Shown here in pieces: positions 17,055-57,339 of a stretch of DNA of 64,000 nucleotides. A program made the position numbers and the translations under genes. The notes under the pieces are model-generated. The model was not told where the DNA came from. It did no database searches and was given only the letters and a program-made list of their open reading frames with translations. Numbering within the stretch: the first letter of the stretch is position 1; every line of letters starts with the position of its first letter. Origin of the DNA: Eledone cirrhosa (Eukaryota); the NCBI GenBank assembly GCA_964016885.1, contig OZ024743.1, forward strand, positions 145,576,001 through 145,640,000, written 5' to 3'.

Positions 17055-17465
17055 AGTGGCTGCCAACTCGTTTTCGAGTACGGCTACTACTTTATATCCA
17101 TGTAGGAGAACCCCTACCGATGCGATGAACGAGTGTGACCTTTTAGTCCAGCCAGCGACTTGAAAACTCTGGTACAAACACTACACTTGTGACAATTATT
17201 GACACATAGTGCTGGGATCTTGGTACCATGTGACAACAAGTGCAGAGAGATCTCCAGATATAAAGCAATGCCTGTGCCGTGAAGCTTTTATAGTGAGCAA
17301 AGGCACTGCACAAAGCCAGTCCCACTCTCTTAACCAAGATGATATTTACCAAAAAGAAGAACAAGTCAACATCATTGGATACCATCAAGGTTGCAGGTGT
17401 TATATCAGAGTTTTCTTTCTTCTAGAATTCTGCCTTGACAATGGCTAAGGGGTCATCTCTCCCGA
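17055..17465 (-). mobile_element. (ATGT)n-tailed retroposon copy
   Basis: matches 3223-3626 and 22241-22818. Confidence 0.75.
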
Positions 17466-17634
17466 CATACATACATACATACATACATACATACATACAT
17501 ACATACATACATACATACATACATACATACATGCATGCATGCATGCATGCATGCATACATACATACATACATACATACATACATACATACATACATACAT
17601 ACATACATACATACATACATACATACATACATAC

Positions 17635-18318
17635 ACTGCAATCCAAGAACAGGAGACTAACACGAAATACCTGATCCACAAAAGAGATAGGGGTGCAGGC
17701 AAAACACCTAGATGTGATAACAAGTGCAGACTCTGCAGAACTAACATCGAGGATATCACCCATGTCATCAGCAGCTGTCCAAAGATGTCATCGCGGTACT
17801 ATCTACCTATGAGGCATGATGTAGTGGCCAAAACACTGTTCAATGCAGTTCGTAGAAAAAATAGCCTCGATAATAAACACATTAAAAGCTACAGCAATGT
17901 GGAAGACATCCATGTACATAATATGAAAGAGTACTGGTGGAATGTTCCAGTAAAAACCCCAATAAAATGCAGGCATAACAGACCAGATATTATGATATGG
18001 GACAGGGAGAAGAAAGCATGCACAGTAGTGGAAATTAGCTGCCCAGCAGATGCCAATATAATATCAAAGATTAGTGAAAAGGAGAATATTTATGCAGAAC
18101 TGATGAGAAATCTGCAGATACTCCACCCTGATTACACCTTCAGATGTATGCCTGTGATTATTGGGTCACTGGGGTATGTTAGTAACTGTCTCAATACAAA
18201 TCTTGAGAAGCTAGGCTTCACAGGAACAGAAAGAACACAACTAGTTAGGAAATTACAAGTACAATCCATTAATGGAACAGTAAAAATATGTAAAACATTC
18301 CAAAAATGTTGCATCTAA
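17635..18318 (+). mobile_element. 5'-truncated R4/Dong-like non-LTR retrotransposon (CCHC knuckle plus restriction-like endonuclease), subfamily 1
   Basis: AIQEQE, CRLC..EDITHVISSC, RHD, RPDIMIWD..VVEISCP..K..Y; begins directly after (CATA)n. Confidence 0.9.
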
Positions 18319-18630
18319 TAACTGCATATACACATGTACAGATACAAAGCATGCACACATACAACTCAAAACATACACATCCACACATACAATAACATCC
18401 ATATCTATACATATATATCTACCTAGTTGATGTTGTGTAAATTCCAATGAGAGAGTCTTGTGTCTATGTTAGAAACCGACTCTCTCTCTATATTGGTAAA
18501 ACTTTGTGAAATTATAAAACCAGAAGAACATACATACATACATACATACATACATACATACATACATACATACATACATACATACATACATACATACATA
18601 CATACATACATACATACATACATACATACA

Positions 18631-19240
18631 TTGCCAGCTGCGAAAGAATGTCATCTAGCTACTACCTCCCCATGAGACACGATGGGATAGCTAGAACCAT
18701 CTGGAACGCACTTCGGAAAGCAAAATTAACAACAAACGAGGAAGAATATATTGAGACAGATGGCACTAAGGAATACTGGTGGAACCTGAAAATAAAAACT
18801 GCCACCAAATTAAAGCACAACCGGCCTGATATTGTTGTTTGGGACCACACATTGAAAACGTGTTCTGTTGTGGAGATCAGCTGCCCACTTGATGTAAACG
18901 TTGTCAGAAAAATACAGGAGGAGGACATCTACGGACCATTGATAAGGAGTTTACAAATTCAGTATCCAAGATACACCTTTAGCTTCATACCCATCATTAT
19001 TGGAGCTACGGGTTATATACCAACCCGCTTGGACCAAAGTATGACTGAACTTGGATTTGCGGACAAAGAGCGCAGCTCCCTAATTCATAGTCTACAAATG
19101 GCTGCGATAGCTGGCACCTTCAAAATTTGCAAAACATTCTTGCGATTCAAGGGATGACAATTTCTTTTCTTTTACAACCTTGTCACCAGGAAGGTGGCCG
19201 GTCAAAAAAAATATACTCGAAATTAAGAGAAAGAGATAAC
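18631..19240 (+). mobile_element. 5'-truncated R4/Dong-like RLE retrotransposon, subfamily 2
   Basis: RHD, RPDIVVWD, VVEISCP; (CATA)n on both sides. Confidence 0.9.
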
Positions 19241-19662
19241 GTACATACATACATACATAGATACATACATATGCGTATATTTTTGCTGTTTAGCCACAGA
19301 TCAACCTTGATCGATTAGATCTTTGATCAAAGGCATTCGGGTTGTCACTATTTTCTCTTTTTTCCAAGCATAGAGTGACCATGACCATATCATTTATGGT
19401 GCTATTTTATAAGATGGTAGAAGTGGTTTGCGTAACATTTCACTGCTATTCCTAACCAGTTGTGCGGACTCATAGAAGCTCATGTTGAAAATAACAGCCA
19501 ATATTCTTCTGTGCCATTCTACTAACAAGAATCACATCTTTTCGTTTCAAGCTAACAAGGCCACCATTTGCTCTCAAACAAAGTGCACCAGAACTAGCAC
19601 TTTTGCTCCTTAAACTCTTCAGCCTCATTCTCTCTCTCTCTCTTCCTCCCCCTCTCTCTCAT

Positions 19663-19730
<68 letters not shown>

Positions 19731-19733
<3 letters not shown>

Positions 19734-19792
19734 CGGTGCCCCAGCATGGCCTCAGCCGGATGGCTGAAACAGGTAAAAGAGAAAGTAAAAGA

Positions 19793-19795
<3 letters not shown>
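19731..19795 (+). mobile_element. isolated CR1-type LINE 3' tail inside (TA)n
   Basis: GGGCGGTGCCCCAGCATGGCCTCAGCCGGATGGCTGAAACAGGTAAAA matches the LINE end at ~11225-11280. Confidence 0.75.
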
Positions 19796-19879
<84 letters not shown>

Positions 19880-19963
19880 TATATATATATACACACACAA
19901 ACACACACACATATATATATATGTGTATATATAACCCATGCAAGCATGGAAAAGCGGACGTTA

Positions 19964-20059
<96 letters not shown>

Positions 20060-20237
20060 AAAAAGAGATGAAATCGAAAATGCAACTGAAGTCTTATTTT
20101 TAAAAATAAATATATATATTTTTTTTTTTAAATAAGACTTCAGTTGCATTTTCGATTTCATCTCTTTTTCTTTATACTTTCACTCGTGTAGGACACCTCG
20201 GTTATTTTTCATTCTGTAAAAAAAACCTCACTTTCTA

Positions 20238-20375
<138 letters not shown>

Positions 20376-20598
20376 ACATATATCGATCCTTAGAGGCATT
20401 TTACAGTGTATGCCGTTTTCCAGAAGAGCAAATCTTCTGGTCATACTAGCGATTACTATATATATATATATAACGAAGGAAATGTGGTAAGGAACCAGGT
20501 GGACCATAACGCACCAAAGTCCAGAATTAGCCGTCGAAACGGCTTGAGCTCAGCTGTCGGGGTCTTACTGGTTCCTATATATATATATATATATATAT

Positions 20599-20680
<82 letters not shown>

Positions 20681-20797
20681 ATAATAATAAATTTGAAGAC
20701 TAAAATCCAAAGAGAGCTCGATAAGGATAAATATATATCAAATATATAAGAACCGTAGAGCAGCGATTCTTTGCTTAAACTTTAATCTGTTATTTTA

Positions 20798-20843
<46 letters not shown>

Positions 20844-21354
20844 TTTGGTCAAACTAACTACAACTAGCTCAAGCTTCACCACCATACCATCCTATATACT
20901 TAAATATACTATTCTACATACTTTTTCTCAGCAGGTCTTCAAAGAAAAAGAACACTTCGACTTAACAACAAAACATTATGAACACATTGTTCAATGTAGT
21001 CTGAAATGTGGTATCACCAAAGAATACTGAGAGCTGTTTGATCAGAGCTATCATGAAGATAAGCAACAACAAAGGACGAACATACATACATACAAGATGA
21101 TGGCTGCAACCCGATTTCGAGTAATGCCATGCTGAAGCATAAGCATCACGGATGTGGCTTTTTAGTGCTGCTAAGGACTTGCCTAAGGCCAGCAATACCA
21201 TGCATTGCAAAGATGTCATATATCAAGCAATGTATGTGCTTTAAGCTTTGCATATACATACATACGTACATACATACATACATACATACATACATACATA
21301 CATACATACATACATACATACATACATACATACATACATACATACATACATACA

Positions 21355-22230
21355 GACAGACTAAAAATATTGACCAATTTACAGAAAAAGTTGTGCATGG
21401 ATACTTGAGACGTAAAACACAGACCATAGAGGGGATAAACCACTCAAAAAGCCTGGCATGAAGTTCCGACAAGTTTATGACATCACACCTTGAGGGATAT
21501 CTCTATGCAATACAGGAACAAGAACTCCCTACCAAATATCTGCTACACAAAAGTGGAGGGCCATCAGCTGACAATAAATGTAGGCTATGTAAAACAAAGA
21601 TCGAGGATGTAAGCCACATTGTTGCCAGCTGCGAAAGAATGTCATCTCGCTACTACCTTCCCATGAGACACGATGGGATAGCTAGAACCATCTGGAACGC
21701 ACTTCGGAAAACAAAATTAACAACAAACGAGGAAGAATATATTGAGACAGATGGCACTAAGGAATACTGGTGGAACCTGAAAATAAAAACTGCCACCAAA
21801 TTAAAGCACAACCGGCCTGATATTGTAGTTTGGGACCATACATTGAAAACGTGTTCTGTTGTGGAGATCAGCTGCCCACTTGATGTAAACGTTATGAGAA
21901 AAATACAGGAGAAGGAGGACATCTACGGACCATTGATGAGGAGTTTGCAAATCCAGTATCCAAGATACACCTTTAGCTTCATACCCATCATTATTGGAAC
22001 TACGGCTTATATACCAACCCGTTTGGACCAAAGTAGGACTGAACTTGGATTTGCGGTCAAAGAGCGCAGCTCCCTAATTCATAGTCTACAAATGGCTGCG
22101 ATAGTTAGCACCTTCAAAATTTGCAAAACATTCTTGCGATTCAAGGGATGACAATTTCTTTTCTTTTACAACCTTGCCACCAGGAAGGTGGCCGGTCAAA
22201 AAATATACTCGAAATTAAGAGAAAGAGATA
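21355..22230 (+). mobile_element. 5'-truncated R4/Dong-like RLE retrotransposon, subfamily 2 (longest copy)
   Basis: VHG motif, AIQEQE, CRLC..H...C, RHD, RPD..E; ORF 21477-22151; (CATA)n at both ends. Confidence 0.92.
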
Positions 22231-26072: not shown

Positions 26073-26430
26073 AATAATTGTTTCTACTTTTGGCACAAGG
26101 CCAGCATTACTGGTATTTATTTTATCGACCCCGTAAGGATGAAAGGCAAAGTTAACCTCGGCGGGATTTGAACTCAGATCATACAGGGAGGTAACTCTAT
26201 GCTTCAAAGCATGGCGATACTGCCTTTTAATTTAATTTAATAATTGTTTCTACTTTAGGCACAGGGCCAGCAATTACCCAGTGCATTACTGGTACTTTAT
26301 TTTATCGACCCCGTAAGGATGAAAGGTAAAGTCAACCTCGGCGGGATTTGAACTCAGATCGTAAAGGGACGTAACTATGGTGGAAAGCATGGCGTCCGAC
26401 CCTCTACCGATACTGCCAATCCACCACCCT
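26073..26430 (-). mobile_element. two tandem tRNA-derived SINE copies
   Basis: reverse-complement matches to 13149-13336. Confidence 0.85.
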
Positions 26431-26974
26431 TTAATTTAATTTAATTTAATAATAAAGACTAAATGATTTCCTTTTTTCTATTTCTTGATTTTAATAATCT
26501 GTTGTGAATGTAAGAACATCTGCAGTGAATAAAGAGAAGAGAAGAAAAATAAATATGAACGATTTAATGTGTAAGGGGTTGGGGGGGGGGGGGGTAAAGA
26601 AGAAAAATGTTATTACTCCTAATACATGTTAGTAGATGAAGGAAAGGATGTCACTTCCGTCTTGAAAAAGTTAGTTGTACTGTATGTTTATGCGAATGTG
26701 TGAAAGTTCGTGGGAAAGAGTGGAGGTACTAACTTATCTAACACACACACAAACACACGCACATCTTTTTAGACTGGAGAAATAGAGGTAACTGGGTGCG
26801 GTCGATATAGTTGATAATCAGATTAGAGTTTTCCAGCATTTAAAAAAGAAAATGTAGGATGAGAAGGAATTTTTATATCGTGTGTTCACAAATAGAGTTC
26901 TTTGGAGGAAGAATTAGATAGTGTTTTGATTATGCTTATCATTTCAGAGACTGAAACGTTATTGTTTAGTCTCG

Positions 26975-27170
26975 GTGGATTGGCAGTGGATTGGCAGTAT
27001 CGGTAGAGAGTCGGACGCCATGCTTTCCAGCATAGTTACGTCCCTTTACGATCTGAGTTCAAATCCCGCCGAGGTTGACTTTGCCTTTCATCCTTACGGG
27101 GTCGATAAAATAAAGTACCAGTAATGCACTGGGTAATTGCTGGCCTTGTGCCTAAAGTAGAAACAGTTAT
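26975..27170 (+). mobile_element. tRNA-derived SINE with TSD
   Basis: GTTATTGTTTAGTCTC is present on both sides. Confidence 0.88.
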
Positions 27171-27331
27171 TGTTTAGTCTCAAGTTAACTCTGGTCAATC
27201 AAACTTATGATTAATCTTGTTTCAGCCATGACCATCACATTTTTAAATATATTTTCTGACTCGCCTTTTTTAAAGATGTAGAATGAAGGAGATTTATTTG
27301 CTACTAGGTTTAGCATACATATATACATACA

Positions 27332-36513: not shown

Positions 36514-37525
36514 GTTTAACGTCCATCTTCCACGCTAGCATGAGTTTGGACAGGAATTTTCCCACTTGAGGCAAGATTGGTTGTCTTGCTCGTATAGGAC
36601 TTTCTGGCGGGTTTTCTACGGCTGGATGCCCTTCCTAACACCAACCACGTTTACAGTGTGGACTGGGAGGTTTTTACCGTGCTACCTACACGGCCACCTT
36701 ACAGCGTGGACTGTGTGTTTTTTTTTTTGTCGTGACACCTACACAACCTCATTTATTTTGGACTGGATGTTGTGGTACCAACATAACTTTACATTGGAAG
36801 GGGTGGTGTGGATGGGGTGGGGGTAGTGGGACGGGGGTGTATTTTTGTTAGAGGTGCCCACTGACTGTAGGTTTCGCTTTGTACTTAGGCAAGGCGGGTC
36901 TTCTGTATTACTGTGTAGCGCCAAAGATCTCGGTCCAGTGACATTGTCTTGGAGAGGTGTAAGTGTGTGAGGTCGGAATTTATCAAGTCATCCCAGGTTT
37001 TTCTGGGTCTGCCTACTCCGTGGCTACCGTCTATTTTTATCGCCCTGCACTTTTTTATACAGCTGACGTCTTTCATGCGCATCACGTAACCATACCAACG
37101 TAGTCTTCTCTCGAGTAAACAGCATCTGATCCCTCTTATTCCTAATTTCTCCCTTAGTTCGTTTATGCTTTGCCCTTCACGTATATTACTATTACACATC
37201 CAGCGGAGCATGCAAGCTTCGTTCCTCTCCAGTCTGCGTATATCCTCTGCACACAATGCCCAGGTCTCACTGCCATGTAACATCGCTGTTCGTATGCAGG
37301 CATCATACAATCTGCCTCTCATTTTTAGAGAGAACCCTTTAGCGGCCAATAGTGGTATAAGCTCTCTGAACTTTTTCCATCTCATTCGGACTCTAGCTAC
37401 AGTACTTTCAGAGCACCCTCCACCACTGCTGATTTTGTCACCCAGGTAACGGAAGGTGTGCACTATTTCTATAGAACCATCTGTGCAATGGAATGAGCTA
37501 GTATTCTGTGGGCACTTGCTGCTAC
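36456..37525 (-). mobile_element. 5'-truncated RTE-clade LINE with (GAT)n tail
   Basis: ORF 36885-37604: FRYLG, ARVR..WKKF, LHGSETW, LRWYGYVMRM, GRPRKTW; 3' end GGACGTTAAAC(GAT)n; second 3' fragment at 48369-48520. Confidence 0.9.
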
Positions 37526-37738
37526 TTATTGGGTGTGTGTGTATATAATCATGCTTATATACATATATGTACGTTCGTATGTATTCACATACATCCACAC
37601 TCAATTTATTAGCATGAATCCAATGAAGCTACCCACCTGGTTGCGTGTCACTTGAATCAACTATTAATTAATCTATTGCTTTGTCACAAGTTACAACTAG
37701 TCTAGCTGTTTTAACAACAATAACTAATCTATCATTGG

Positions 37739-56171: not shown

Positions 56172-56634
56172 TATATTATATTATATTATATTATATTATA
56201 TTATATTATATTATATTATATTATATTATATTATGTGTGTGTATATATATGATTAGTTTTTTCGTTGATTTGGTACTGTGTGGCTAGGTTTGCCTGCCGC
56301 AATTTTCAATTTGTCAAGCTGTCTAAACGTATGTTATTACTCATTACTCTAAGGCCGACAACCTTATCGAGTGCTTTGCTGCATATTCCTAATTGTAGGT
56401 CGTTAGCTTGGCCACAGCCAAAGCTTCGAGTTTACTAAGCTTCCACTTGTATATATATATGTGTACATTGAAGTTTCTAAATTTTCGGTATATATATATA
56501 TATATATATGAAGACAAACATAGAATATTCGAAAATATTCTGTATGTTTATAATAAACATTTTGAAGACCCAATCGCTATAGAATAGAATACGTCACGTA
56601 TTACAATTTGAGATTCTCGATAAAAGTAAGGGAA

Positions 56635-56677
56635 GTAATCTACGCGTTTCATTCTTGTTAAAAATCTTCAGGATTAC
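56635..56677 (-). ncRNA. type I hammerhead ribozyme, family A variant
   Basis: GTAATC-CTGAAGA-tTTTTaacaAGAAt-GAAA-CGCG-TA-GATTAC. Confidence 0.87.
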
Positions 56678-57094
56678 ATATCCAATACTTTTATCGAGAA
56701 CGACACAGCTAGAGACTTATAGAATACTTAGCTGTGTACAGGAACTGGTTTGATAGAGCGGTAGCCGGTCCGGCAGAAATTAGAATTTGGATTTAATGCT
56801 CTGAAATAGCGATATATATGTGAAGACAAACAGAATATTCGAAAATATTCTGTATGTTTATAATAAACATTTTGAAGACCCAATCGCTATAGAATAGAAT
56901 ACGTCACGTATTACAATTTGAGATTCTCGATAAAAGTAAGGTTTGTCTTCACATATATATCGCTATTTCAGAGCATTAAATCCAAATTCTAATTTCTGCC
57001 GGACCGGCTACCGCTCTATCAAACCAGTTCCTGTACACAGCTAAGTATTCTATAAGTCTCTAGCTGTGTCGTTCTCGATAAAAGTATTGGATAT

Positions 57095-57137
57095 GTAATC
57101 CTGAAGATTTCTAACAAGAATGAAACGCGTAGATTAC
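57095..57137 (+). ncRNA. type I hammerhead ribozyme, family A variant
   Basis: GTAATC-CTGAAGA-tTTCTaacaAGAAt-GAAA-CGCG-TA-GATTAC. Confidence 0.92.
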
Positions 57138-57294
57138 TTCCCTTACTTTTATCGAGAATCTCAAATTGTAATACGTGACGTATTCTATTCTATAGCGATT
57201 GGGTCTTCAAAATGTTTATTATAAACATACAGAATATTTTCGAATATTCTATGTTTGTCTTCACATATATATCGCTATTTCAGAGCATTAAATC

Positions 57295-57339
<45 letters not shown>

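Follow-up and report, generated by a model that had tools for sequence, protein, structure and literature searches.

A putative new retrozyme family of Eledone cirrhosa whose insertions bear the footprint of Penelope-like elements at both ends

A new family of repeats in the genome of Eledone cirrhosa, here called family A, is classed by its structure as a putative non-LTR retrozyme, and its insertions bear the footprint of Penelope-like elements (PLEs) at both ends. Family A is a protein-free, high-copy repeat of 310-312 nt with a predicted type I hammerhead, which lies in (TA)n as two head-to-head arms ending ~35 nt apart. It is likely copied by the reverse transcriptase (RT)-endonuclease of a PLE from what is likely a circular RNA, a reading to which we give a probability of about 0.7. 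The window referred to below is the whole stretch of 64,000 nucleotides that was analysed (positions 145,576,001 to 145,640,000 of contig OZ024743.1, assembly GCA_964016885.1), and plain coordinates are positions within it.

The insertion at 56508-57298 consists of two inverted arms placed head to head between (TA)n runs and is not a simple tandem array; these arms were absent from the original prediction for this locus. The features of this insertion and of a second one at the start of the window, assigned from the sequence, are as follows.

56490..56508, (TA)n target, left flank
56509..56942, minus strand, left arm, which runs leftward through 1.4 units (312-nt family A monomer) and stops, tailless, at site X (locus L009)
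56613..56701, minus strand, left-arm copy of the predicted type I hammerhead
56942..57298, plus strand, right arm, which runs rightward through 1.15 units and stops at site Y, carrying the tail
57071..57159, plus strand, predicted type I hammerhead of the right arm
57085 with 57145, plus strand, compensated pair: U-A here, C-G in the array at 1-1410
57264..57298, plus strand, tail between end sites X and Y: 35 nt, terminal on the right arm only
57299..57337, (TA)n target, right flank
1..1410, plus strand, X-ended right arm of the second family A insertion, in 310-nt units (locus L097)

The arms of 56508-57298 overlap by 1 nt at the head-to-head junction. Two differences separate them: the left arm lacks 2 nt in its inner unit and has a C-to-U change in stem II. 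In the left arm the compensated pair is 56687 with 56627 on the minus strand. The array at 1-1410 has an inverted Y-ended partner arm of 5.4 units lying upstream of the window. Identity between the two insertions is 93-96%, their units being separated by 16 substitutions and a 2-nt insertion, and no stop-to-stop frame of at least 130 aa overlaps either of them. Elsewhere in the window there are near-perfect inverted repeats at 1502-1696, from 1775, at 26239-27171 and at 49355-49872, the first two of which sit in (TA)n; these are possibly short two-armed insertions of other families. Broken frames at 17449-22151, 36885-37628 and 10748-11209 resemble what we take to be the C-terminal parts of LINE-type retrotransposon proteins.

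The hammerhead core pattern has 18,795 matches in the 3.0 Gb genome and the reversed pattern has 0. As in the definition of a non-LTR retrozyme unit, family A forms tandem units (~170-400 nt by that definition), each with a type I hammerhead, at many dispersed loci. Arms were mapped at 76 of these loci, comprising the 40 closest to the 56508-57298 unit, the first 17 on contig 1 together with the array that opens the window, and 18 that two subfamily searches supplied; 61 are two-armed, 14 are one-armed and 1 is complex. The outer ends lie at two fixed sites ~35 nt apart, X at phase ~132 after the cleavage site and Y at ~166-168, scored in windows of phases 129-142 and 160-176 respectively that were both set after the data had been seen. 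The two-armed loci follow a strict rule: 54 combine an X end with a Y end, X+X and Y+Y are both absent, and 7 pair Y with some other end (one of these is masked, and two resemble X ends whose alignment ran on into TA); 119 of the 129 X or Y ends lead into TA-rich DNA. The 101 inner ends at the first 58 loci are instead uniform across the unit (p 0.16 and 0.25), with inner phases that differ between the arms at most loci, and alignments of the two arms share 1-6 bases at 25 of the 41 simple junctions. Arms reach lengths of up to ~20 units. Target duplications were readable only at 2-3 non-TA loci, and those read by eye at L007 and L152 are ~9-12 nt long.

Both arms of a locus mostly carry one haplotype. 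At L163/L164 all 36 of 36 full units are identical across both arms, and loci differ from one another by fixed variants; one array, L003/L168, is mosaic. Public contigs from four sequencing runs, of unstated kind and possibly from the source sample, hold family A at very high depth with the same variants and show its presence only, and one 342-nt contig among them closes on itself, which fits a tandem array or a circle equally.

The original prediction had proposed independent insertions from a circular or concatemeric template, entered at different phases of the monomer. The mapped ends, the inner-end phases and the locus haplotypes support independent insertions from such a template. Entry at different phases holds for the inner (5') ends, which are random, and fails for the outer (3') ends, which occupy two fixed sites; the left arm at 56509 and the array at 1-1410 both end at X. 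Fixed termini had been named as the outcome that would speak against a circular template. They are found at one end of each arm, where they likely mark the start of reverse transcription, and as such they do not contradict a circular template.

The same anatomy is familiar from PLEs, whose hallmarks include a 5'-truncated inverted copy at the 5' end and a 30-40 bp tail on one end (10.1101/2021.04.23.441226), together with a preference for (TA)n and 8-10 bp target duplications (10.1101/2021.04.23.441226; PMC3846280). Family A has a head-to-head inverted 5'-truncated copy at 61 of 76 loci, a one-sided tail of ~35 nt in the strict X+Y pattern, and a microsatellite target with a short duplication, and in these respects it is like the endonuclease-bearing PLEs described in those two papers. 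It differs from them in lacking an ORF, no RT-GIY-YIG frame being found in the family A element, in that both arms are multimers of the 310-nt unit, and in that its hammerhead is canonical and not minimal. The family A element acts like a passenger of PLEs and is not itself a PLE, and its mobilisation by PLEs is well supported by the anatomy of the insertions. The in vitro work of Frangieh et al. 2024 on the PLE Poseidon PAc offers a close biochemical parallel (PMC11167929): the purified protein, a predicted dimer, cuts and extends both strands of an AT-rich target from a pair of neighbouring internal start sites, one at each limit of the tail, and hammerhead cleavage is not required for insertion. 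The parallel breaks down in one respect, since PAc, supplied with linear RNA, starts alike on both strands, whereas each family A insertion carries one X and one Y end.

Candidates for the mobilising protein are present in the genome. From 10,595 GIY-YIG candidates 150 were scored, and some belong to frames, the longest of 938 aa, that also encode an RT and a cysteine linker, the GIY-YIG being C-terminal; by the definition given in 10.1101/2021.04.23.441226 these RT-GIY-YIG PLEs appear to be Neptune/Nematis-like. Inspected by eye, they have an inverted arm, (TA)n flanks and one-sided tails of ~38, 39 and 65 nt. Non-autonomous Chlamys derivatives of PLEs are also reported to form multi-copy insertions (10.1101/2021.04.23.441226; PMC3846280); for family A, no sequence link to an autonomous partner was found among the 70 PLE loci compared (from the 150 scored), none of which shares family A sequence save for independent family C insertions (see below). 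The best tail resemblance to family A, that of the PLE at L132, was rejected, its shuffle p being 0.07 and its rank among 423 junctions lying under the 90th percentile. Hammerhead-like motifs lie downstream of the endonuclease in two PLE families, one represented by L205, L214 and L218 and the other by L142 and L204, and the motif of the former shares with family A a U-U at the base of stem II.

The predicted hammerhead at 57071-57159 has a stem I of 16-bp distal and 6-bp proximal segments, core segments at 57101-57107 and 57122-57125, a stem II with the U-U at its base, and a stem III of 2 bp within a 6-nt palindrome, with cleavage predicted after 57131. Judged by its letters it agrees with the type I class in its core (CUGANGA, GAAA, NUH), its three helices and its open stem I, and an Rfam scan gave no match at the gathering score. 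All 100 shuffled versions of the unit fold less well than the unit itself (z -3.67). In a predicted co-fold of two units the stem III palindromes pair, a prediction that says nothing on activity; a short palindromic stem III and cleavage as dimers are reported for animal hammerheads (PMC4209133).

The differences between the two insertions that the original prediction had listed are all present. Relative to 1-1410, distal stem I carries a C-G to U-A double change, a G-U of proximal stem I becomes A-U, the core changes only at its variable position (position 7, U to A) and loop II AACG becomes AACA. From these the compensatory changes had been taken to validate the fold, a claim of which the fold survives on family-level data and the argument from the lone double change does not. 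When 16 substitutions are placed randomly, at least one double compensatory change arises with probability 0.072 if any position counts and 0.025 if only the hammerhead helices do. Two copies thus give borderline evidence, and the compensatory change taken alone is ordinary. The compensated pair is C-G at 51 loci and U-A at 22, with no intermediate among these 73 loci, and the switch is one historical event. Across 32 distinct family A sequences this switch is the sole two-sided change among 38 pairs, a count that 494 of 500 shuffles reach, and 97.0% of cells are paired compared with 96.3% in shuffled data.

Variants fixed in all copies of a locus (the template-borne ones) were compared with single-unit variants at 73 of the 76 loci; L098, L040 and L049 were left out because their alignments ran past the junction. 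In the hammerhead helices the pair is kept by 7 of 7 locus-fixed variants (six events, the double change being counted twice) against 1 of 13 single-unit variants (Fisher p 1e-4), and over the whole unit by 12 of 16 against 21 of 64 (p 0.004). Most pair-keeping variants are G-U wobbles. The 11 core positions show no locus-fixed change and three single-unit changes across the 73 loci.

Several patterns among the variants are recorded here in their own right. The commonest locus-fixed change is A-to-G (10 of 35, against 7 of 98 single-unit changes), and 7 of these 10 lie in helices; the excess may reflect either a selective advantage of G-U pairs or editing of the template from A to I, which are inseparable here, and the polarity is uncertain. 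One-base insertions two bases past the predicted cleavage site occur on several backgrounds (L081, L090, L163, L166, L167 and L169), as do other variants in family A, and could be either errors at the ligation junction or products of recombination between templates. Phase 276 varies among the units of the single arrays L003/L168 and L099 (G/A 2/8 and G/T 3/5), although it is not significant as a mutation hotspot by locus count alone (~0.14 corrected), and an identical 2-nt deletion at phases 119-120 is seen in L003 and in the window near 56830. Such recurrent variation at phases 276 and 119-120 could be repeated misreading of one template base.

Three further families have a related organization. 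Family B, with a different 470-nt unit that carries its own predicted type I hammerhead, is represented in the window, and the copies of family D lie near PLEs at other loci.

44133..46645, family B insertion: 470-nt hammerhead unit, two-armed layout, tail of 62 nt
44133-45654, minus strand, family B minus arm
45660-46645, plus strand, family B plus arm
L135:4480-4678, L137:1100-1235, L140:6985-7135 and 7909-8119, family D copies

The 62-nt tail of family B is near the ~65-nt tail of one young PLE family (L130, L137 and L140), and tail length may pair passengers with their partners. Family D insertions are short, two-armed and set in (TA)n, and they carry a hammerhead whose core is near that of family A and a tail of ~68 nt; the hammerhead was considered as a part of the adjoining PLEs and this was rejected, the copies being separate short insertions.

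Family C is an older sister of family A with a unit of ~316 nt and identical X and Y ends (L091:3380-3740, L101:2440-2870 and L170-L199). The two families are identical at 207 of 322 aligned bases (64%), rising to 76% in a 95-nt region around X-Y that is a candidate RT-binding element. For the comparison 20 of 30 family C copies were aligned manually, with the core and the conserved ends of the stems as reference points; the other ten were skipped for want of an anchor. Among 24 hammerhead pairs compared with family A there are 9 two-sided changes, 2 one-sided changes, 10 that are the same and 3 unpaired in one family, and pairing is retained in 11 of 13 changed pairs (p 0.0006-0.017 according to the transition bias assumed, for hammerhead pairs only). 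The core is conserved across families A, B and C and the helices differ. The helices are kept by covariation, weakly so within family A alone, and the family-level data lend support to the predicted hammerhead fold.

Long near-perfect inverted repeats beside (TA)n, such as those at family A insertions, are prone to sequencing and assembly fold-back artefacts, and the inverted arms might be suspected of this origin. We regard it as very improbable, since the arms of 56508-57298 differ at two places and start at unequal phases, and fold-back reads make neither the X+Y rule nor target duplications; the deep public contigs with the same variants point the same way, with the reservation that they are not independent if they derive from the source sample. 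There is also little to recommend a repeat propagated at the DNA level, satellite or MITE-like, with an incidental hammerhead and a compensated pair produced by palindrome correction in DNA. The distal stem is indeed a near-perfect inverted repeat and the compensated pair lacks an intermediate, but G-U wobbles, which make up most pair-keeping variants, pair only in RNA and worsen a DNA palindrome, the core is kept in three families while their helices diverge, and random inner with fixed outer ends fit reverse transcription. Fold-back self-priming that copies the first arm, as proposed for rotifer PLEs (PMC3846280), would account for the common haplotype of the arms and for the 10-67 nt alignment overlaps at a few junctions. 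It does not account for the 9 of 51 simple X+Y loci, including 56508-57298 and the window-start array, in which neither arm fits within the other, for the longer arm being X in 25 loci and Y in 26, or for the mostly unequal inner phases. Fold-back copying is contradicted as the sole route, and it is a poor candidate overall.

The nature of the template is a closer question. The same PLE machinery and two priming sites could act on an uncleaved linear multimer, or on linear monomers joined by template jumps, with the arrays later homogenised or lengthened in DNA. The arms span many cleavage sites, as an uncleaved multimer would, and unprocessed RNA was the main PLE substrate in vitro (PMC11167929). 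A locus-private variant test for a single-molecule template failed, its two candidates being rejected as private and recognized as subfamily markers with 815 and 805 genomic matches, so that homogeneous source arrays can also yield homogeneous daughters. Against a linear template, many subfamily variants are fixed in every unit and in both arms of arrays of up to 36 units, which needs a monomer bottleneck: a new variant starts in one unit, and its fixation across an array therefore needs a monomer step followed by re-multimerisation. Copying of linear arms alone should, moreover, shorten arrays across generations. We consider a linear template unlikely on balance. A circle is the simplest template giving both the monomer step and re-multimerisation, and it is likely the one used.

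The reading that we prefer, copying of circular RNA by a PLE protein, would proceed as follows. Family A arrays would be transcribed and would self-cleave, perhaps as dimers via the stem III palindrome, and be ligated to monomer circles. A PLE protein, probably a dimer, would bind the region around X-Y and cut both (TA)n strands; one 3' end would prime at Y and the other at X, each copy circling for a random length, and the two cDNAs would join head to head, often where they have a few bases in common. Amplification would be confined to templates that fold functionally, and template-borne variants would as a result keep the helices. Priming by one dimer at two sites is likely, as is the circular form of the template. 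The most specific version, in which a single Penelope-type dimer would hold a single ribozyme-made RNA circle and start synthesis on both cut strands at the two fixed sites, with each active site copying by rolling circle, is tentative, and we would place it slightly short of even odds.

Family A is like the animal non-LTR retrozymes of Cervera and de la Pena 2020 (PMC7229834) in that its tandem units are short and poor in GC, each contain a single type I hammerhead, encode no protein, occur in thousands of copies and have a highly self-paired RNA; axolotl HHR_Amex2 is described there with a U-U mismatch at the same place in stem II. That paper describes tandem repeats and proposes LINEs or PLEs as mobilisers, whereas a family A insertion is a pair of inverted multimer arms whose outer ends are fixed. 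Expression and circular RNAs were demonstrated there; for family A both are postulated. Li, Clavereau and Pollet 2026 (10.64898/2026.07.22.740005) reach the same conclusion on retrozyme origin and mobiliser from co-occurrence and pLTR similarity in Xenopus, and favour local tandem amplification; the evidence from family A is instead the shape of the insertions, which suggests that multimers are made at insertion. No description of inverted arms, tails or fixed ends of retrozyme insertions was found in the literature searched, including these two papers, whose supplements could bear on the point, and the words "ribozyme" and "retrozyme" are absent from the main text of a recent octopus repeat annotation (PMC13282606).

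The mobiliser and the circular RNA template of animal retrozymes have been a hypothesis since 2020. Family A bears on it, and on the way in which PLEs come by their inverted repeats and one-sided tail, in that a 310-nt non-coding passenger displays the full PLE footprint in thousands of young copies, and the strict X+Y rule, together with arms that are not copies of each other, constrains the mechanism. Its unit, in which a 95-nt region surrounding the start sites is conserved, could also serve as a minimal and well-defined RNA substrate in vitro for RT-GIY-YIG proteins of the same genome. If one dimer does hold one circle, every insertion would preserve the sequence of one circular RNA molecule, down to bases that had been misread or edited, and retrozyme multimers, PLE inverted repeats and the one-sided tail would be explained by one model.
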